A DNA stretch of 64,000 bases from a virus. Location: IMG/VR virus record IMGVR_UViG_3300045049_000234, positions 47,180-111,179 of that record, one strand, 5' to 3'. The notes below the pieces were generated by a model. It searched no databases. It worked only from the letters and a program-made list of their open reading frames with translations, and was not told where the DNA came from. The position numbers were made by a program, and so were the translations under genes. This document shows, one piece after another, positions 1 through 59,981 of this stretch. Numbering within the stretch: the first letter of the stretch is position 1; every line of letters begins with the position of its first letter.

Positions 1-1593
1 GTCGATCGACGCCTTGGAGTAGCCCGTGGTGTCGATCCCGAACAGCGGCACCGACGCCGGGACCGCGTCGGACACCGACGTGGCGCGCGGCGCGACCAGC
101 CCGGACCGGCGCACGCCGTACCCGCCGCTGTAGTACCCGCCGTACGCGAACGCCTGGCCGTCGGTGACCACGATTACCCGGTCGTGGCCCTTGAACGTGG
201 CCTCGATGGCGCCGATGGTCTGCGTGCCGTGGCCCACCTCGCCGATGCGCTTGGTGAACCGGTCGATCTCGCGCAGCATGCTGCCGCCCAGCGCGATGTC
301 GTGCTGGAACACGCCGTCCGCGTAGCCGTACAGGCTCACTTTGCCGCCGGTGCGGTACGCCAGCGCCACGCCGATCAGCGCGCCGATGTCCACGTGCCGG
401 ATCTGCGACTTGCCAGACACCGGGGACTGCATGGAGCTGGAGGTGTCCACCAGCACCAGCGTGCGCCCGTCCAGGAGCGGGATGTTCGCCGTGGCCGCTG
501 CCAGCGCCTGCTCCAGCGCGTGACCCCACCGCAGCGACGGTGCGGCCTTGTACGCCGACAGGAACCGGTACGGGAACTGCCGAGAGCGCGCCACTTCCGC
601 CGGGTCGGCGATCTTCGCCGCCACCTGCGCCGCGACCTTGTCAGAGACCTTCGCCTCGTCGAAGTTGCGCAGGTTGCGGATCAGCGCCATGTAGCCCATC
701 GACGGGATGATCGCCTCCCACGCGGCGCGGTCCATCGGACCCTGAAGCCAACCGGCCAGGATCTCCCACGTGATGCCCGCGTCGTTCAGACGCTGCGCCC
801 CGCCGTCGGCCAGCAGGACCGCACGGCGCTCCGCCACCGGCAGCGCCATCAGATCGCGGTTCGCGCGCAGGATGCGCAGCGACTCGGGAACGTCCAGCTC
901 CGGCTCGTGCGGCTTGGACACCACGTAGTCGAACAGGTCGTGCTGCCACGGCGCCTTGATGGTCTGCGCGGAGTCGTCGCGGTCGCCCGAGTGCGTCAGG
1001 TCCAGCACGCGGCGCCACGAGAAGCCGGGGTGCGCCACGTCGCCGTACTTGATGAAATTGCGCTCGTTGCCCATGCGGATCATGGCGTCGGCGATACCGC
1101 GCTTGAGCGGCTTGGGCAACGCCATCCCGTAGCGCGACGTCCAGTACGCCAAAAGCTCGCCGGGCTCGTCCGGGCGCTGGAGCGCGTCGCGCACGACGCT
1201 GCGCGCGGAGATGGTCGGCAGCGGGTACTGCGTGCCGGTGCGGCCGGTGCCCATCTCGTCGCGGCGCGCGTGGACGTACTCCGCCGCCGCGACGACCGAC
1301 GCCGAGCGCATCAGGCCCTCGCTGCGAAGCCACTTGATGAACCGCGCGGTCCAGTCGGGGTGCTGGACGGCGCACTGACGCACCAGGTTGCGGAACCGGA
1401 CGTCGCGGTCGCCCGCCTTCTCGTAGAACGTGTCCTCGCCGACCATGTTCGTCACGGCCAGCAGGAACAGATCGGACTGCGGGGTGCGGGTCCACGCGGC
1501 GCCGCCCTCGTGGGTGGTGGTGCGCTCGTCGGTGGTCCGGATGACGCCCGGCGCAGTGGTCTGCTTGCCGAGCTGCTTGGTGAACTTCGCCAC
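1..1593 (-). CDS. TROVE-domain Ro60/Rsr-like RNA-binding protein with C-terminal vWA domain (3' end outside window)
   Basis: My translation from GTG at 1593 (SD AGAGGA upstream): MAKFTKQLGKQ...THEGGAAWTRTPQSDLFLLAVTNMVGEDTFYE...LQRPDEPGELLAYW...LPKPLKRGIADA...MGYMALIRNLRNF...SRQFPYRFLSAY...TLVLVDTSSSM...VIVVTDGQ. These are typical TROVE and MIDAS motifs. Absent from the ORF track because there is no stop in the window. Confidence 0.93.
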   Translation of the reverse strand, partial: MAKFTKQLGKQTTAPGVIRTTDERTTTHEGGAAWTRTPQSDLFLLAVTNMVGEDTFYEKAGDRDVRFRNLVRQCAVQHPDWTARFIKWLRSEGLMRSASVVAAAEYVHARRDEMGTGRTGTQYPLPTISARSVVRDALQRPDEPGELLAYWTSRYGMALPKPLKRGIADAMIRMGNERNFIKYGDVAHPGFSWRRVLDLTHSGDRDDSAQTIKAPWQHDLFDYVVSKPHEPELDVPESLRILRANRDLMALPVAERRAVLLADGGAQRLNDAGITWEILAGWLQGPMDRAAWEAIIPSMGYMALIRNLRNFDEAKVSDKVAAQVAAKIADPAEVARSRQFPYRFLSAYKAAPSLRWGHALEQALAAATANIPLLDGRTLVLVDTSSSMQSPVSGKSQIRHVDIGALIGVALAYRTGGKVSLYGYADGVFQHDIALGGSMLREIDRFTKRIGEVGHGTQTIGAIEATFKGHDRVIVVTDGQAFAYGGYYSGGYGVRRSGLVAPRATSVSDAVPASVPLFGIDTTGYSKASID

Positions 1594-1642
1594 GGTCGGG
1601 TTCCTCTCTACGTGCGTGTGCTGTGCGGGAGGAACCGGCAGG

Positions 1643-1782
1643 GGTGACCCGAGATTGAAGCGACGGCGGCTGTTTTGACTGATGCTCTACCAAGTGAGCT
1701 ACCGAGGGTAAAGCCCCCCGGATTGGGATCGAACCAATAACCTTCAGTTCCGAAGTATCCGCCATCAGGGCACCGGGTCACC
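1643..1782 (-). ncRNA. Y-RNA-like unit 1 (YrlA-like, permuted tRNA domain)
   Basis: Terminal stem GGTGACCCG/CGGGTCACC; motifs CCGGTGCC, TACTTC, AATCTCGG; T-arm ATTGG-TTCGATC-CCAAT, then closed acceptor-like hairpin, then D-arm TAGCTCACTTGGTAGAGC. Confidence 0.85.
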
Positions 1783-1792
1783 GGTGCTGGAC

Positions 1793-1919
1793 CTCCCGAG
1801 GTTGGGGTGTGCGGGACTAAGTTGCCTTAGACCATCTCGGCCACACGCGGCGGACCGCGTGACAGGATTCGAACCTGCGTTCGTTTGCACGAAGTAAGTT
1901 CCGCACGGGGCACCGGGAG
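1793..1919 (-). ncRNA. Y-RNA-like unit 2
   Basis: Same three motifs; T-arm GCAGG-TTCGAAT-CCTGT, hairpin CACGCGG-TCCG-CCGCGTG, D-arm TGGCCGAGATGGTCTAAGGC; small TTCG-TGCAAA-CGAA hairpin. Confidence 0.85.
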
Positions 1920-1954
1920 ATGCCTTTACTGTCAGTGTTCAGTTGTCAATGGGG

Positions 1955-2100
1955 TCGCGCCCGAGGTTGAGTCGGTGATCGTTGTTCTCTGTTGTGCTGC
2001 CGTTACACCACACGCCCCAGGTGGGGGGCGCGCCGGATTCGAACCGGACCTCCGGTTCCCTAGACCGGTGAAGTAACGATCTCCTTGGCACCGGGCGCGA
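1955..2100 (-). ncRNA. Y-RNA-like unit 3
   Basis: Same motifs; anticodon-like arm CCGGT-CTAGGGA-ACCGG, T-arm CCGG-TTCGAAT-CCGG, closed acceptor-like hairpin, D-arm TGGTGTAACGGCAGCAC. Confidence 0.85.
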
Positions 2101-2109
2101 TGTCTGTGG

Positions 2110-2256
2110 GCCGTGTCCGAGATTGAGGTCGGACGATCGTGACGTTAGGTGCTCTGGGCCACTGAGCCACAGGGGACACAGTCCCCCGCCGGGATTCGAA
2201 CCCGGGTCACCCGCTTAAGAGGCGAAGTAACGATCATCCTGGGCACCGGACACGGC
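2110..2256 (-). ncRNA. Y-RNA-like unit 4
   Basis: Same motifs; anticodon-like arm TTCGC-CTCTTAA-GCGGG, T-arm CCGGG-TTCGAAT-CCCGG, closed acceptor hairpin, D-arm TGGCTCAGTGGCCCAGAGC. Confidence 0.85.
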
Positions 2257-2266
2257 ATCCGTTTAG

Positions 2267-2413
2267 TCCACCCCGAGGTTGAATCAGAGACCGGTATTCT
2301 TAAAGAAGGACTCGAACCTTCACCTCCGGCTTTTCAAAGCCAGCGTGCTGCCAATTACACCACTCGGCCATGAGTGGCCGAGGAAGTATCGGTATCAATG
2401 GCACCGGGATGGA
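2267..2413 (-). ncRNA. Y-RNA-like unit 5
   Basis: Same motifs; order is acceptor-like hairpin CTCGGCCA-CTCA-TGGCCGAG, D-arm, anticodon-like arm CTGGC-TTTGAAAA-GCCGG, T-arm GAAGG-TTCGAGT-CCTTC. Confidence 0.82.
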
Positions 2414-2421
2414 TGCCTGGC

Positions 2422-2533
2422 CCCTCCCGAGATTGAGGTGGCCGACGGAGAACGGGACTTGAACCCGCAGCGTTTCCTTGGAAGGGAAATTTCGAACCAT
2501 TCGAAGTAACCGTAGACCTGGGCACCGGGAGGG
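2422..2533 (-). ncRNA. Y-RNA-like unit 6
   Basis: Same motifs; D-like hairpin TTCG-AATGGTT-CGAA, anticodon arm TTTCC-CTTCCAA-GGAAA, T-arm GCGGG-TTCAAGT-CCCGT. Confidence 0.82.
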
Positions 2534-2542
2534 AATTCTATG

Positions 2543-2621
2543 GTGTCCCCGAGATTGAAAGCGGCGGCCGGTGTGTTTCCATTTGGAGTGAAGTAACCGA
2601 TTGCCTGGGCACCGGGGACAC
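2543..2621 (-). ncRNA. Y-RNA-like unit 7 (short)
   Basis: Same motifs; the only insert is a small hairpin TTCA-CTCCAAA-TGGA. Confidence 0.8.
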
Positions 2622-2627
2622 GTACGC

Positions 2628-2750
2628 GGCATTCCCGAGGTTCACGGTGGATCGACGACGGGGGTTCTCCGTCCCCACGCTCCGCGTGAGGGTTCCCCCT
2701 ATGGTGCACTGGTGGAGGAAGTATCGCCGGTCCGAGGCACCGGGAATGCC
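2628..2750 (-). ncRNA. Y-RNA-like unit 8 (non-tRNA insert)
   Basis: Terminal stem GGCATTCCCG/CGGGAATGCC and same motifs; the insert has hairpins CCCTCACGC-GGA-GCGTGGGG and GACGG-AGAACCC-CCGTC and no T-loop. Confidence 0.75.
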
Positions 2751-2774
2751 CACTGTTCAGTTATCAAGAAGCGC

Positions 2775-2854
2775 GTCCCCGAGATTAAGGGCGACGTCCG
2801 GAACGGGATTCAAATTTACAGTTTGAAGTAGCCGGTCGTCTGGGCACCGGGGAC
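2775..2854 (-). ncRNA. Y-RNA-like unit 9 (short)
   Basis: Same motifs; insert hairpin TTCAAA-CTGTAAA-TTTGAA. Confidence 0.8.
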
Positions 2855-2902
2855 AAAGTCGGTGCGTTTCGGCGGGGGTTGGGTTCCCGTTTCAACACGC
2901 AT

Positions 2903-2933
2903 AGCGTAGCACATGCGTTAGACGGTCACGCAA
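2903..2933 (-). promoter_or_regulatory. Putative promoter of the Y-RNA array/TROVE transcript
   Basis: Minus strand TTGCGT...CTAACGC..TGC-TACGCT: extended -10 plus the phage CTAAC spacer motif. Confidence 0.5.
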
Positions 2934-2939
2934 CACCAT

Positions 2940-3458
2940 TTAGCCGCGCGCCGCGATGTCGGCGAACATGCGCACGCTGTCCACGATGTCGTCCGTCAGC
3001 CCCGTCGCCGGGTCCGCCGTGATCAGCAGCGTGGGCGCGGTGTGCGCCGTGCGCCGGTTGCCGCGCGTGAGCATGCCCATGGTGAACCCGTCGTCGATCC
3101 ACGCGAACGGCCGGATGCCCGCGTACTGCAACACGTGATCCCACTTCCATTCGGCGGTCACGTCGTACTCGGAGAACCGGCGATTCATCGGCGCCACCGG
3201 CATCGGGTCCAGCCCGATCAGCGGCGCCAGGTGGGTGTTCGCGCGGTCGTTCCACGTGGTCGCCCACACGTGTTCCACGATGTCGTCCAGCGACCGCACG
3301 CGCTTGACGTCGCCGGGGTCCAGCACGAGCGGCACCGGGCGCGGCATGCCGGGCAGGTCGATCGTGTGGCGCAGCCACTCGCCGCCGGTCACGTTCTGGA
3401 GCGGGTAGCGGTTGAACACCCCGTCCACATCCCAGAACAGCAGCGGCTTGCCGGTCAC
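2940..3458 (-). CDS. HAD-superfamily phosphatase (resembles HAD domain of Swiss-Army-Knife RNA repair proteins)
   Basis: LLFWDVDGVFN motif I, VWATTW motif II, FAWIDD motif IV. Confidence 0.8.
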   Translation of the reverse strand: MTGKPLLFWDVDGVFNRYPLQNVTGGEWLRHTIDLPGMPRPVPLVLDPGDVKRVRSLDDIVEHVWATTWNDRANTHLAPLIGLDPMPVAPMNRRFSEYDVTAEWKWDHVLQYAGIRPFAWIDDGFTMGMLTRGNRRTAHTAPTLLITADPATGLTDDIVDSVRMFADIAARG

Positions 3459-44131: not shown

Positions 44132-44210
44132 GGGTCGGATGGGCTCGGAGCGGAGATCGGCTGTAAACCGGTTGCCATCGGCATAGCAGGTTCGACACCT
44201 GCCCGACCCA
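44132..44210 (+). tRNA. tRNA-Tyr(GUA)-like gene with degenerate D-arm
   Basis: Acceptor GGGTCGG/CCGACCC plus A, anticodon arm ATCGG-CTGTAAA-CCGGT, long variable arm, T-arm GCAGG-TTCGACA-CCTGC; D-arm non-canonical; no CCA. Confidence 0.65.
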
Positions 44211-44792
44211 CGCGGAGGAACCAGTGAGCACCGTAGATCGGATACGTCGGTATCTGGAGAACACCCGCCACTACGGCGGCAACGGCGACGAACCGCTGAT
44301 CGACGCGCTGTCCGACGTCGTGGGATTGTGGTCCCCGCCGGATGAGGACGCGGGCGATGACCTGATGGCGTGGGATGAGGGCTATCAGGAGGCGATGGAC
44401 GAGGTTGTGGACGTCATCGCCAACGCACTCGGGATCGCCCGTGAATGACGTCACCACGGCCATAGGCGAGCGTTTGGCGGCGTTGGACGGGATAGACGTC
44501 ACCGCCGAGCCGGAACGCTCCTTGCGGGCGATCCTGGCCCTACGCGAGGCCGCCCGCGCCGTGGTGGACCTGCACTGCCCGCGCGAGCCGACGCAGATCG
44601 AGGCGGCCGGACTGCCCTCGTACGAACGTGGAAAGATGGTGTGTACCGTGTGTATGCCCAGTGGTGGAGCGCTGGGTCCACGCGAGGTCTACCCATGCAG
44701 AACGGTGCGCGCCATCATGGGAATGATCGGGGTGAAAGAACCGTGATCCGTCCGCGCAGCATGAGCGTGTTCCGCCGCATCAAGGAGGACCC

Positions 44793-46970: not shown

Positions 46971-47693
46971 TCCACCGCGAACCGCACACACTGTCCGGCA
47001 AGACCGTGACCGCGAACTGGCGCGGCGAGACCGAGGAATACGACGTCGAAGACTACTGGGACCGTGTCGCCGGTGCCTCGTGGATGGACATCGCGGGCAA
47101 CCCGGCGGTGATCCACTACGAGGTGCGCCACCGTACCAAGCCGTTGCCCGACGGCGACGACGTCCTGTACGGCAAGGACCGCTACGGCCTGGGCCACCTG
47201 GTGCACATCAGCGAACTGGCCGCGTGAGCGACGGCCCGCACTGCCGCCTGTGCGGCGACCCGCTCCACCTGGTCGCGATGGCCGACATGGACGAGTACGT
47301 GTGGGTGGACGATCACGGCGACACGACCGGCATCGACCGGGACCTGCGCGTGTACGGCGAGGGAACAGGCGACGCGTACACGCGGATCGGACGGCTGTTC
47401 CGCACGGTGCGCGAGCACCAGCAGTCGCGCAAAGGCACACTGACACCCGCCGAGTACAAGCGATTGATGGGGGAGTACATCGGATTGAACGTCCGGCTGG
47501 GCAACGGCACATGGCACACCCACGTGGCCACCGGCACCCCGGTCAACACGGCCCCGGTCCCGCACCACTGCGAGCGCCCGATGTGGCACCGCCCGTCCGG
47601 CTGGCACTGCCGCGCGGGATGCGGCCACGTACAGCACAGCGGCCAGTAGACTGACTACCACTACGCACCATCCACCACACACCGAGGACCACC

Positions 47694-59005: not shown

Positions 59006-59094
59006 GGGTCCTCCGTTCACGTGTCAGCGCCCCCGGCAAGGTCATCCGATTACCGACCGGGGGCGCCGTGATGCGCGGTTTCCGTCACGCATCG

Positions 59095-59168
59095 CACCGG
59101 CGGCAGGACTCGAACCTGCGACTCTGAGATTCGTAATCTCAAGCTCTTTCCAGCTGAGCTACGCCGGT
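59095..59168 (-). tRNA. tRNA-Arg(ACG)
   Basis: ACCGGCG/CGCCGGT acceptor, TGAGA-TTACGAA-TCTCA, T-loop TTCGAGT; no encoded CCA. Confidence 0.9.
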
Positions 59169-59286
59169 TAGCGGCGGGATGCTTCTTCCGGACGAACCGA
59201 CGCTCACGCGAGGACCCGCCTGCAACCCGCCTGCCACACGCGGCACCGGCTTCCAGGGGCAGCCGTACTGGTGCGTTGCGTGGTCG

Positions 59287-59360
59287 TCGCCCCGAGTGGA
59301 ATTGAACCACCGGCCTTTCCCTTATCAGGGGAACGCTCTGACCAACTGAGCTACGGGGCA
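59287..59360 (-). tRNA. tRNA-Ile(GAU)
   Basis: TGCCCCG/CGGGGCG acceptor, TTCCC-CTGATAA-GGGAA, T-loop TTCAATT. Confidence 0.88.
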
Positions 59361-59468
59361 TTGCGGGTGCGCTTTCGAAACAACGAGGTGCGCACCGCTG
59401 ACGCGGGAGGACTGCCATCCTGCCCCGCGCCCCGAGACGAGCGCTGGCAGGCGCCTGTCTCTACCTCG

Positions 59469-59540
59469 CTCCCGATCGAGGATTCGAACCTCGTATGCCG
59501 CGTCCAGAGCGCGGCGTGTTGCCGATTACACCAACCGGGA
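59469..59540 (-). tRNA. tRNA-Gln(CUG)
   Basis: TCCCGGT/ATCGGGA acceptor, CCGCG-CTCTGGA-CGCGG, T-loop TTCGAAT. Confidence 0.92.
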
Positions 59541-59771
59541 TCGGTTGTCCTACACGTCCTGTTTCACCCACCGGCCGTTGTGGCGGACCTCCACCACCAC
59601 GTCCGGCGAACCGCCCACGGGCCAAGAGGCGGCGGTGCCCTAGTGGAACCGGGGGGAGTCGAACCCCGTGCGCGCGCTCGTGGCTACCCGCCACGGCCGA
59701 TCCCATGGTGGTCGGTCTTTCAGCGCACACGTGCCCGGGACGCGTCCGGGTTTGGTGCCGACCAAGCGCCG

Positions 59772-59844
59772 TAGGCCCACGAGGACTCGAACCTCGAACC
59801 CGCTGCTTGTAAGGCAGCCGCTCTCCCAATTGAGCTATAGGCCC
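59772..59844 (-). tRNA. tRNA-Val(UAC)
   Basis: GGGCCTA/TGGGCCT acceptor, GCTGC-CTTACAA-GCAGC, T-loop TTCGAGT. Confidence 0.92.
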
Positions 59845-59908
59845 AGGTCACCGGACACAGCCATGGCCTAACGCCGGTGCCTTAGTCGTGAAGTTGTCAA
59901 ACAGTCAG

Positions 59909-59981
59909 TTGCGGAGACGGGAGTCGAACCCGCAAATGCAAGGGTTATGAGCCCTCCGGCTTACCGTTGGCCTACTCCGCG
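59909..59981 (-). tRNA. Initiator tRNA-fMet(CAU)
   Basis: C1:A72 mismatch, GAGGG-CTCATAA-CCCTT with three consecutive G:C pairs. Confidence 0.9.

Follow-up and report, generated by a model that had tools for sequence, protein, structure and literature searches.

The window analysed here (64,000 nucleotides, positions 47,180 to 111,179 of the IMG/VR virus record IMGVR_UViG_3300045049_000234) comes from a 111-kb actinobacterial phage whose genome carries nine YrlA-type Y RNA units (U1 to U9) in an array on the minus strand (Table 1). The array lies on the same strand as a Ro60/Rsr-like gene, 49 nt upstream of its start codon. The product of this gene, whose C-terminal end was read in L049, matches the TROVE family of Pfam (E=8e-15), with a VWA_2 match under its cut-off, and is 35-43% identical to proteins annotated as 'Ro-like RNA binding protein' in Streptomyces, Gordonia, and Arthrobacter phages. 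On the other side of the array, the HAD_SAK_2 match of the adjoining gene reaches 30 bits (cut-off 27.5); this gene is genomic context and lies outside the RNA units. Searches against Pfam, PHROGs, and NCBIfam found no other RNA-repair annotation among the neighbours, which include unknown families, a RusA-like resolvase, an HNH endonuclease, and a lysin. In related loci, RNA ligase, nucleotidyltransferase, and phosphatase genes as well as tRNA clusters adjoin Ro60. A scan of positions 1400-3100 found no sigma-70 promoters or terminators.

Table 1. Genes and Y RNA units of the Ro60 locus, in window coordinates
Feature	Positions	Strand	Description
Ro60/Rsr-like gene (TROVE+vWA)	1..1593	-	GTG start 1593; extends beyond the window start by ~126 nt in the genome record
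U1	1642..1782	-	canonical YrlA-type: handle, T arm 1737-1723, capped 7-bp acceptor 1721-1702, D arm 1699-1684
U2	1789..1922	-	arm-position hairpin 1893-1880, then T arm, capped 7-bp acceptor, class-II-like D arm
U3	1954..2100	-	anticodon arm 2068-2052, variable loop AGGU, T arm 2047-2033, capped acceptor 2032-2011, D arm 2008-1994
U4	2110..2255	-	anticodon arm 2226-2210, variable loop UGAC, T arm 2205-2189, capped 7-bp acceptor 2188-2170, D arm 2167-2151
U5	2266..2413	-	capped acceptor 2382-2363, D arm 2360-2345, anticodon arm 2343-2326, T arm 2321-2305
U6	2420..2534	-	D-like arm 2505-2491, anticodon arm 2489-2473, T arm 2468-2452
U7	2542..2621	-	mini unit: handle + single hairpin 2592-2578
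U8	2628..2749	-	handle + three hairpins, none tRNA-like
U9	2772..2856	-	mini unit: handle + single hairpin 2827-2809
HAD phosphatase, 'Swiss Army Knife RNA repair' type	2940..3458	-	immediately upstream of the array; Pfam PF18143 HAD_SAK_2, E=7.8e-7

All units share one plan, in which a Ro60 "handle" is combined with UACUUC, which never varies, and with a cargo, which does. The 5' side of the handle reads CCGGUGCC, followed by 11-12 nt and UACUUC, and the 3' side reads CAAYCUCGGG; folding recovered a terminal helix with covarying flanks in 9/9 units. The likeness to YrlA (RF02553) lies in the position of the array next to Ro60/rsr, in the terminal helix, which is predicted to bind Ro60, and in the order of T arm, capped acceptor-like stem, and D arm, which is shared by U1-U4. 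There are also differences. The reference Ro60-binding motif of YrlA in the 5' strand of the terminal helix is GNCGAAN0-1G with a CGAA core, whereas the window units have GGUGCC(C/A)AG in place of GNCGAA; most relatives have GGUGCG(A/C)AG with the CGAA core. The window units score 30-46 bits against the YrlA model (U1 45.7 bits over the full length, E=1.3e-8; U4 29.8 bits as a partial match), compared with a gathering score of 69, and cellular and phage relatives score 37-52 bits. In addition, at least four topologies occur among the nine units of this one array, which also includes mini units with the arm only.

As cargo, the units carry a tRNA or part of one, spliced in with several different topologies. 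The YrlA-order module is absent from U5 and U6 (other orders), from U7 and U9 (arm only), and from U8 (none). In U5, the arms stand in native tRNA order and are entered between T arm and acceptor, and in U6 the cargo is an unpermuted tRNA-like sequence in which the second handle helix replaces the acceptor stem. These two units, and no other, reach the 29-bit gathering score of the Rfam tRNA model RF00005 (U5 36.7 bits over model positions 6-65, U6 32.2 bits over positions 1-71).

A hairpin was found at the anticodon-arm position in 7/9 units, and in five of these it is a 7-nt loop on a stem of 4-6 bp. The original prediction had listed five tRNA-like 7-nt loops, and all of them were located on the minus strand: UUCAAA-CUGUAAA-UUUGAA in U9 (loop 2821-2815), UUCA-CUCCAAA-UGGA in U7 (2588-2582), UUUCC-CUUCCAA-GGAAA in U6 (2484-2478), UUCGC-CUCUUAA-GCGGG in U4 (2221-2215), and CCGGU-CUAGGGA-ACCGG in U3 (2063-2057). 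The register of U4 was set by homology to three related units (L001_5187, L014_3639, and L023_3661). The two imperfect loops on the same list are also present: the U2 hairpin can be drawn with a 6-nt UGCAAA loop but folds better as a GNRA tetraloop (UUCGU-GCAA-ACGAA; stem pair probabilities 0.76-0.99), with UUGCAAA and UUGCAGA at the same place in relatives L028 and L031, and the U5 arm, CUGGC-UUUGAAAA-GCCGG, has an 8-nt loop on a 5-bp stem. Neither of the remaining units has an anticodon-like loop at the arm position, U8 having none at all and U1 lacking a 7-nt one, with a possible CUUC-GGAACU-GAAG hairpin (6-nt loop). The arm is retained across four different topologies inside one array.

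Hairpins were detected with an explicit geometry test accompanied by shuffles, energy-only picking having missed weak A-U-rich arms. With a per-unit rate of 0.0146 in dinucleotide shuffles, the chance that at least 4/9 units carry such a loop is P=5e-6. The arm lies in the minimum-energy fold of U9 (pair probabilities 0.8-0.99) and U6 (0.54-0.84). Relative to that fold, the arm of U7 costs +1.5 kcal/mol, that of U4 +2.9, and that of U3 +5.2. Because the arms of U7, U4, and U3 are absent from the minimum-energy fold, they rest on homology and not on energy. The textbook module (5-bp stem, 7-nt loop, 4-5-nt variable loop, T arm) occurs in U3, U4, and U6. Default ARAGORN called none of the nine units a tRNA, while permissive settings gave tRNA-Pro(agg) for U3 and tRNA-Lys(ctt) for U4. 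The possibility that the units are real tRNA genes was rejected, given that there is no default ARAGORN call and no free acceptor end. It had been claimed that no unit has a free CCA end, which is correct for the DNA sequence: the acceptors are either capped by a loop or replaced by the handle.

Homologous arrays had been named as the place where a lack of anticodon-like loops would count against this interpretation, and there the enrichment is strong. In related phages, 29/113 units carry such 7-nt loops, compared with 1.65+-1.28 in shuffles, and with stems of at least 5 bp the numbers are 23 and 0.62. Seven nucleotides is the only loop size above shuffles at both stem cut-offs, 9-nt loops being in excess at the 4-bp cut-off as well. 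When any base was allowed at position 32, the feature was found in 64/191 units from 80 actinomycete rsr loci versus 35/113 in phages. Moreover, the hairpin has the spacing of a tRNA, with a 5-bp stem, a 7-nt loop, a 4-5-nt variable loop (often AGGUC), and a T arm. AGGUC is the usual class-I variable loop. If the UUC of UACUUC is counted as nt 27-29, UACUUC and the T loop stand as far apart as in a tRNA (modal spacing 26-27 nt) in 29/71 related units having a T arm. Compensatory changes were observed at the two loop-proximal stem pairs in a set of units picked by T-arm spacing alone and arranged in two ungapped alignments (A2 and A3); the covariation score was matched by 0/500 shuffles. Judged from these sequence comparisons, the hairpins are true homologues of tRNA anticodon arms and are maintained by selection, and the anticodon arm is a lineage-wide trait of actinobacterial and actinophage YrlA whose array has expanded to nine units in this phage.

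An arm of this kind could also be an evolutionary left-over without function. YrlA would then descend from transcripts of tandem (dimeric) tRNAs, and decay would not yet have reached the anticodon arm belonging to the first tRNA, or recombination with neighbouring tRNA genes would have refreshed it. With a dimeric-tRNA origin (Sim & Wolin 2018, as cited in 10.1101/312249), the T arm should be preceded immediately on its 5' side by an anticodon arm and a variable loop, as is the case here, and the arrays lie in or near tRNA clusters. However, the arm persists across Ro60 proteins that are only 35-57% identical, in cellular as well as phage loci; its loop frame is fixed or almost fixed, in contrast to the drifting flanks and acceptor cap; and the mini units retain the arm alone. 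The stems are also specific to the Y RNAs and are not tRNA copies: they always begin with UUC, which is true of only 6/194 real tRNAs, so the loops were not merely copied together with tRNA stems. A functionless relic is very improbable.

Published descriptions of YrlA assign this region differently. A conserved YUAY (UUAC, AUAC, or CUAC in the window units) precedes the hairpin 5' of the T arm, which corresponds to the 'V' of Chen et al. 2014 (PMC4201824); as published, 'V' is a less-conserved analogue of the variable arm, whereas the window hairpins have anticodon-arm geometry and loop rules. The Rfam YrlA consensus shows no hairpin 5' of the T arm in the U1 alignment, and Salmonella YrlA is without an anticodon loop (Wang et al. 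2018, 10.1101/312249). A class-II variable arm, as the 'V' label implies, was rejected since the 4-5-nt AGGUC-type linker and the 7-nt loop with U33 and R37 are class-I features. The Mycobacterium smegmatis YrlA of Chen et al. is likewise actinobacterial and has a 7-bp acceptor stem, but is a single cellular gene; the 5' probe given there implies UUACCACUUCUAAUGGAAUGGUC, with a CCA-CUUCUAA-UGG hairpin like that of the related unit L020_3795, and the available text does not remark on its anticodon-like nature. In Deinococcus radiodurans Yrn1, a potential 'anticodon arm' with a 5-bp stem was modelled by the authors; it differs in having a 6-nt loop, located between T arm and D arm, and another orientation, and was placed by them in a separate lineage. 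No description of the actinobacterial YrlA hairpin as an anticodon arm was found in the papers compared here.

The loops follow tRNA rules. U33 is present in 38/44 (86%), R37 in 37/44 (84%), A38 in 32/44, and Y32 in 77%. Among Micromonospora orthologues, C32 and U33 are invariant, A37 and A38 are nearly so, and positions 34-36 vary. G37 accompanies G36 (22/26 vs 6/91, p=1e-14; p=4e-7 on distinct loops), and U32 is coupled to G36-G37 (p=1e-7; p=0.003 on distinct loops). Both couplings also occur in the real tRNAs of the same loci, and the coupling of G36 with G37 is the substrate rule of TrmD. CUGUAAA, CUCCAAA, CUUCCAA, and CUCUUAA are identical to loops of the real tRNA-Tyr, tRNA-Trp, tRNA-Gly, and tRNA-Lys of related phages. 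Exact-loop matches to real tRNAs are significantly frequent when repeats are counted (53 vs 32.6), and not significantly so on distinct loops (20 vs 17.6).

The TrmD rule would be expected if the units were ligands for synthetases or for loop-modifying enzymes (TrmD, TsaD, MiaA), or if they were split tRNAs that become charged. In the split-tRNA route, the capped 7-bp acceptor would be cleaved open by RNase P and given a CCA end; the handle would hold the two pieces together, and a synthetase or modifying enzyme would recognize this RNA via its anticodon. The original prediction held that the units should not be charged, which is unsafe: in M. smegmatis, RNase P cleaves YrlA and CCA is added to it in vivo (Chen et al., PMC4201824). 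The 7-bp acceptor of this YrlA resembles those of U1, U2, and U4, and Chen et al. raise the possibility of aminoacylation. Several units of this type are also annotated, or called by ARAGORN, as tRNAs. On the other hand, an acceptor stem amenable to such opening is missing from U6, U7, and U9, and the long Ro60-bound helix at the hinge probably makes ribosomal use unlikely. Charging or modification as the purpose of the arm is quite improbable on balance.

The triplets themselves behave differently from their frame. Positions 34-36 in orthologous Micromonospora units change at about the rate of flanking DNA, which is near-neutral, and such triplet swapping is as compatible with drift as with an arms race. 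A34 was found in 8/99 loops, in the triplets AGG (including U3), ACC, AUU, and ACU, which are absent or doubtful among the ARAGORN-called tRNAs of these loci. The triplets displayed in the window show no relation to the ten tRNAs encoded by the phage itself (1/6 overlap, about as expected), and duplicate triplets within a locus (0 vs 0.73 expected) are uninformative at so low an expectation.

Near-neutral triplets among orthologues and the occurrence of A34 are in line with a role in which the triplet is irrelevant. The anticodon arm would merely complete a stable L-shaped fold, and the cargo would link Ro60 to PNPase or another binder of the tRNA elbow or give nuclease resistance, as modelled on Deinococcus, Salmonella, and the Thermus phage phiLo. 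RYPER-type Ro60-Y RNA-PNPase complexes are the only function that has been demonstrated (PMC4201824; phage phiRo60-Yrl-PNPase, PMC12135203), and the effector is expected at the conserved elbow (Wang 2018, 10.1101/312249). However, U7, U9, and related mini units have the arm but no elbow, and a structural cap leaves both the G36-G37 coupling and that of U32 with G36-G37 unexplained. RNase P, the CCA-adding enzyme, and TruB, all of which act on YrlA, are not known to need an anticodon arm. Such a tethering or stabilizing role is possible, though somewhat doubtful.

A decoy role, in which the RNA is held by the handle and can be resealed, is plausible and, tentatively, the single most likely mechanism, though still less likely than not. 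To proteins that read anticodon loops, above all tRNA-cleaving nucleases, RNAs docked on Ro60 would offer loops of authentic appearance, which would act as competitive ligands or substrates. A nicked RNA would be kept together by the handle helix and Ro60, and end-healing or ligating enzymes encoded nearby could reseal it. For the window units, we infer Ro60 binding, expression, protein partners, and protection alike. The presence of the arm as the only cargo of U7, U9, and their sister mini units lends some support to decoys; three sisters of U9 (L023_3308 with CUGCUAA, L037_3526 with CUUCGGA, and L040_3413 with CUGCUAG) have a UCAAA/UUUGA stem in common with it. The same is true of the HAD_SAK_2 gene by the array and of the RNA ligase, nucleotidyltransferase, and phosphatase genes by Ro60 in relatives. 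It counts against decoys that three of the five window arms fall outside the minimum-energy fold. Furthermore, any decoy must compete against a very large tRNA pool.

The decoy concept is not new, as YrlA has already been suggested, as a speculation, to be a competitive inhibitor of an anticodon nuclease (Hughes et al. 2020, PMC7790460). In Salmonella, tRNAs with a severed anticodon loop induce rsr-yrlBA-rtcBA (PMC7790460), and for mycobacteria it has been argued that phage tRNAs counter anticodon nucleases (PMC10264068). The window units resemble such phage tRNAs (van den Berg et al. 2023, PMC10264068; Azam et al. 2024, PMC11555353) in their anticodon loops and in their occurrence in tRNA-rich actinophage genomes, and phage tRNAs too have been proposed to blunt host anticodon nucleases. 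In contrast, the latter are functional decoders that replace cleaved host tRNAs, whereas the window units have no free acceptor and sit on a Ro60 handle. The phage phiLo (PMC12135203) also encodes a Ro60, with the Y-like RNAs Yrl1 and Yrl2 upstream. It has two RNAs, and PMC12135203 mentions neither a tRNA-like nor an anticodon feature in them (0 occurrences of the word 'anticodon'). Yrl binding by the phiLo Ro60 and its complexes with host PNPase have been demonstrated (PMC12135203).

A purely phage anti-defence role is weakened by the cellular occurrence of the arm, by the near-neutral triplets, and by triplets that have no matching tRNA in the loci. Cellular rsr loci carry the feature as often as phages do, so it is no counter-defence specific to phages. 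It is conceivable, although unlikely, that the units form a repairable decoy library, in which each unit, with its own authentic loop, would capture another of the tRNA-cleaving toxins or defence nucleases, and nicked decoys, held by handle and Ro60, would be resealed by the products of neighbouring genes. If so, nine units in a phage, or two to five in a cell, would buffer the tRNA pool against many tRNases simultaneously.

The role of the tRNA-like domain in bacterial Y RNAs has been an open question since 2014, and the only solved YrlA structure, from Salmonella, has no anticodon loop. The present analysis shows that a large actinobacterial and actinophage branch of YrlA retains a real anticodon arm, with a constrained frame, diverse triplets, and arrays of up to nine units. 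As a practical consequence, some units of this kind stand annotated as tRNA genes in public phage genomes. The idea of a "tRNA mimic" thereby becomes testable, the expected partner being a protein that reads anticodon loops. This links Ro60 particles with ongoing studies of tRNA cleavage as a phage defence and of phage tRNAs as a counter-defence.

Nine units (U1-U9) were found on the minus strand of the window, upstream of the phage Ro60 gene, each composed of CCGGUGCC, a stretch of 11-12 nt, the invariant UACUUC, a variable insert (the cargo) and CAAYCUCGGG. The 5' pattern is present in exactly nine copies genome-wide, all within the array, and the reversed control pattern has 0 copies in the whole genome. 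By RNAfold, every unit is closed by a terminal helix of its own two ends (the Ro60-docking handle), in which the flanks of the constant CCGG/CUCGG vary between units yet remain complementary. U1 aligns full-length to the Rfam YrlA model (45.7 bits, E=1.3e-8; the gathering score of 69 is not reached), U4 aligns in part only, U5 and U6 exceed the threshold of the Rfam tRNA model, and cellular and phage relatives of the units score 37-52 bits against YrlA. Because of these terminal helices and Rfam alignments, the units are predicted to be Y RNAs of the YrlA kind, belonging to a divergent branch missed by the Rfam threshold. The array is the largest in the sample, the runner-up having five units.

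The virus record (111,179 bp, with direct terminal repeats and rated complete; the window is its right-hand 64 kb) encodes a Ro60-like protein that matches TROVE (E=8e-15) and, more weakly, vWA. Its identity is 35-43% to proteins annotated as "Ro-like RNA binding protein" in phages of Streptomyces, Gordonia and Arthrobacter, 39-56% to proteins on 31 IMG/VR contigs, and 46-57% to Rsr proteins of 80 actinomycete genomes. PF18143, matched by the gene next to the array, is the HAD domain found in RNA-repair proteins of the "Swiss Army Knife" type; annotation searches of the remaining genes near the array returned nothing useful. Only two inter-unit spacers exceed about 10 nt, and the motif that they share may be a promoter within the array or a signal for processing; a sigma-70 scan gave no match at these spacers. 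In related arrays, ACAACT(T/A)(C/A)A lies at a similar distance before many units. The leader is a possible promoter and operator of the array and Ro60 operon, and its element was not detected by a consensus promoter scan.

Features of the window, with the hairpin and the order of cargo elements in each Y RNA unit
Feature	Position	Strand	Hairpin (stem-loop-stem)	Loop	Cargo order or content
Ro60-like ORF	1593 to 1, continues past window edge	minus			at least 531 aa
Y RNA array	between 2856 and 1642	minus			nine units
U1		minus		no 7-nt loop at anticodon-arm position	T arm, capped acceptor, D arm (canonical YrlA)
U2		minus	UUCGU-GCAA-ACGAA	GNRA tetraloop (better reading)	anticodon arm, T arm, capped acceptor, D arm
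U3		minus	CCGGU-CUAGGGA-ACCGG	7 nt	anticodon arm, T arm, capped acceptor, D arm
U4		minus	UUCGC-CUCUUAA-GCGGG	7 nt	anticodon arm, T arm, capped acceptor, D arm
U5		minus	CUGGC-UUUGAAAA-GCCGG	8 nt, solid 5-bp stem	capped acceptor, D arm, anticodon arm, T arm
U6		minus	UUUCC-CUUCCAA-GGAAA	7 nt	D arm, anticodon arm, T arm; handle serves as acceptor
U7		minus	UUCA-CUCCAAA-UGGA	7 nt	anticodon arm as sole cargo
U8		minus		no 7-nt loop at anticodon-arm position	not tRNA-like
U9		minus	UUCAAA-CUGUAAA-UUUGAA	7 nt	anticodon arm as sole cargo
Long spacers	2750-2771; 1923-1953	minus			shared TTGA(T/C)AACTGAACA
Leader, upstream of first unit	2857-2939	minus			inverted repeat TGCGTGACCGTCTAACGCA beside TTGCGT and TACGCT hexamers
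HAD-domain gene	2940-3458	minus			directly upstream of array; matches PF18143
tRNA-Tyr(gta)	44132-44211				lone tRNA
Five-tRNA cluster	59094-59981				Arg acg, Ile gat, Gln ctg, Val tac, Met cat

A hairpin at the anticodon-arm position after UACUUC (loop positions 32-38 in tRNA numbering, triplet 34-36) is retained in 7/9 units irrespective of topology. All the loops listed in the original prediction were recovered on refolding and coordinate checking, including the two that it had called imperfect, of which that of U2 folds better as a tetraloop. The arm is part of the minimum-energy fold in U9 and U6 and costs +1.5, +2.9 and +5.2 kcal/mol relative to that fold in U7, U4 and U3, respectively; thus, three of these five arms depend on comparative evidence.

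The window and related phage loci together supplied a comparison set of 113 non-redundant units that share the handle and UACUUC. By scanning the first nucleotides past UACUUC for stems of at least 4 bp with a 7-nt loop Y-U-NNN-R-N (T loops excluded), anticodon-like loops were detected in 29/113 units compared with 1.65+-1.28 over 500 dinucleotide shuffles, none of which gave more than 8; this bears out the expectation of an enrichment in homologous arrays. When the stem had to be 5 bp or longer, 23 units were found versus 0.62 in shuffles. Only 7-nt loops were in excess at both cut-offs; 9-nt loops exceeded the shuffles at the 4-bp cut-off, which is taken to reflect these same hairpins when their closing pair is open. 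For the window alone, P(>=4/9 units) was 5e-6. When the letters of 7-nt loops were left unconstrained, U33 was found in 38/44, Y32 in 34/44, R37 in 37/44 and A38 in 32/44, positions 34-36 being mixed. The same handle and UACUUC occur in 191 units of 80 actinomycete rsr loci (mostly 2-4, up to five per locus), and anticodon-like loops (any base at 32) were present in 64/191 of these versus 35/113 phage units. The feature is not phage-specific.

The YrlA family, its tRNA mimicry, its occurrence in phages and the competitive-inhibitor idea are already published. YUAY is conserved at the start of the hairpin region that Chen et al. named "V" (PMC4201824), Salmonella "YrlA lacks the anticodon loop" according to Wang et al. 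2018 (10.1101/312249), and a published probe implies a CCA-CUUCUAA-UGG hairpin in M. smegmatis YrlA (PMC4201824). Here, a T arm was present in 71/113 units, and the UACUUC-to-T-loop distance is modal at 26-27 nt (29 units), which is the exact tRNA spacing when UUC is nt 27-29 (5-bp stem, 7-nt loop, 5-nt 3' strand and a 4-5-nt variable loop, often AGGUC). Two ungapped alignments of units picked solely by this spacing both contained compensatory changes at two loop-proximal pairs (GC/CG; CG/UA/AU). Pairing of the arm in one fixed register reached 67-73% of cells (T stem, 100%), the unpaired cells being mostly units with the arm shifted by one nucleotide; the covariation score was matched in 0/500 shuffles, and every slid control was worse. 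By homology and geometry, the hairpin is an anticodon arm followed by a class-I variable loop, rather than a variable arm. The dimeric-tRNA origin model, as cited in Wang et al. (10.1101/312249), would leave this same arrangement 5' of the T arm. In the Y RNA literature searched, the "V" hairpin of the actinobacterial/actinophage branch as a bona fide anticodon arm with tRNA loop rules, arm-only mini units, and arrays of such size and topological variety were not found.

Across the loci, 19 Y units were called as tRNAs by ARAGORN. The "tRNA-Arg(tct)" of Gordonia phage VanLee (L001:5139-5210; NC_073474.1 65454-65525) consists of a Y unit's 5' handle strand, anticodon arm and T arm (…GAUGCCCAGGACGUGCUUACUUC-GC-CUUCUAA-GCGGG…), and the "tRNA-Ser(gct)" of Alone3 (L003 3274-3347) and the 91-nt "tRNA-Pro(tgg)" of Frankenweenie (L047 3245-3335) overlap Y units likewise. 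Among the tRNAs of the window, Tyr alone overlaps the triplets displayed by the Y units. Outside the window, one of the phage's ten tRNAs (ARAGORN; G000:C1:2444-2520) has a four-base anticodon, ctgg, in an 8-nt loop, the loop length also seen in U5.

None of the demonstrated Y RNA roles is known to require an anticodon arm. Because the arm persists in four topologies and makes up the whole cargo of the mini units, its partner is argued to be a protein reading anticodon loops; the analysis shows the anatomy, homology, enrichment, constraint and tRNA-like loop rules, and everything said here of Y RNA partners is what we infer. The most likely single candidate, held tentatively, would be a tRNA-cleaving nuclease with the Y RNA as competitive ligand or substrate. 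This is suggested because the Salmonella rsr-yrlBA-rtcBA operon is induced by tRNAs with a cleaved anticodon loop, its authors having suggested YrlA as a competitive inhibitor of the nuclease responsible (PMC7790460), because VapC-/MazF-type tRNases are abundant in Actinobacteria and phage tRNAs there have been argued to counter them (PMC10264068), and because an RNA-repair-type phosphatase lies beside the array and, in relatives, tRNA clusters, an RNA ligase, a nucleotidyltransferase and a phosphatase adjoin Ro60. Only Ro60-PNPase tethering and Ro60 gating have been demonstrated as functions of Y RNAs in bacteria and phages (PMC4201824, PMC12135203), and a tether to PNPase or to an elbow-binder, with the arm incidental, is a credible if rather unlikely alternative. 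M. smegmatis YrlA, which has a 7-bp acceptor stem as in U1, U2 and U4, is opened and given CCA in vivo (PMC4201824), so the earlier view that the units could not be charged is unsafe. That they serve as ligands of synthetases or modification enzymes, or become charged split tRNAs once RNase P has cut and CCA has been added, seems improbable.

A non-functional relic is a further alternative, considered very improbable. Within the Y loops, G37 goes with G36 (22/26 vs 6/91, Fisher 1e-14; distinct loops 4e-7), and U32 goes with G36-G37 (1e-7; distinct loops 0.003), with kinship among units inflating the significance of these tests; both rules also hold in 194 ARAGORN tRNAs of the same loci. Inside their fixed frame, the Y loops are thus not random. 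Y stems always start with UUC, as do only 6/194 real tRNAs; therefore, the loops did not simply arrive together with the stems of tRNAs, an indication that authentic-looking loops are selected for. CUGUAAA, CUCCAAA, CUUCCAA and CUCUUAA are the exact loops of tRNA-Tyr, Trp, Gly and Lys in related phages. Exact 7-mer matches to real tRNAs were significant when repeats were counted (53 vs 32.6+-3.2) and not significant for distinct loops (20 vs 17.6). A34 occurs in 8/99 loops, and for its triplets AGG (including U3), ACC, AUU and ACU the tRNA calls from the same loci give either no match or a questionable one.

Across eleven orthologous units of Micromonospora, the ~150-nt RNA hardly varies outside positions 34-36, where divergence is about that of the acceptor cap and the flanking DNA. 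In the loop frame, C32 and U33 are fixed and A37 and A38 nearly so; therefore, the frame is constrained. The first unit of the Micromonospora rsr loci L115-L128 carries CAU, UCC, CUC, CAA and other triplets at 34-36. The triplet may be either free or diversifying, the Micromonospora data fitting both, and these units offer a natural experiment on a neutral versus a diversifying triplet.
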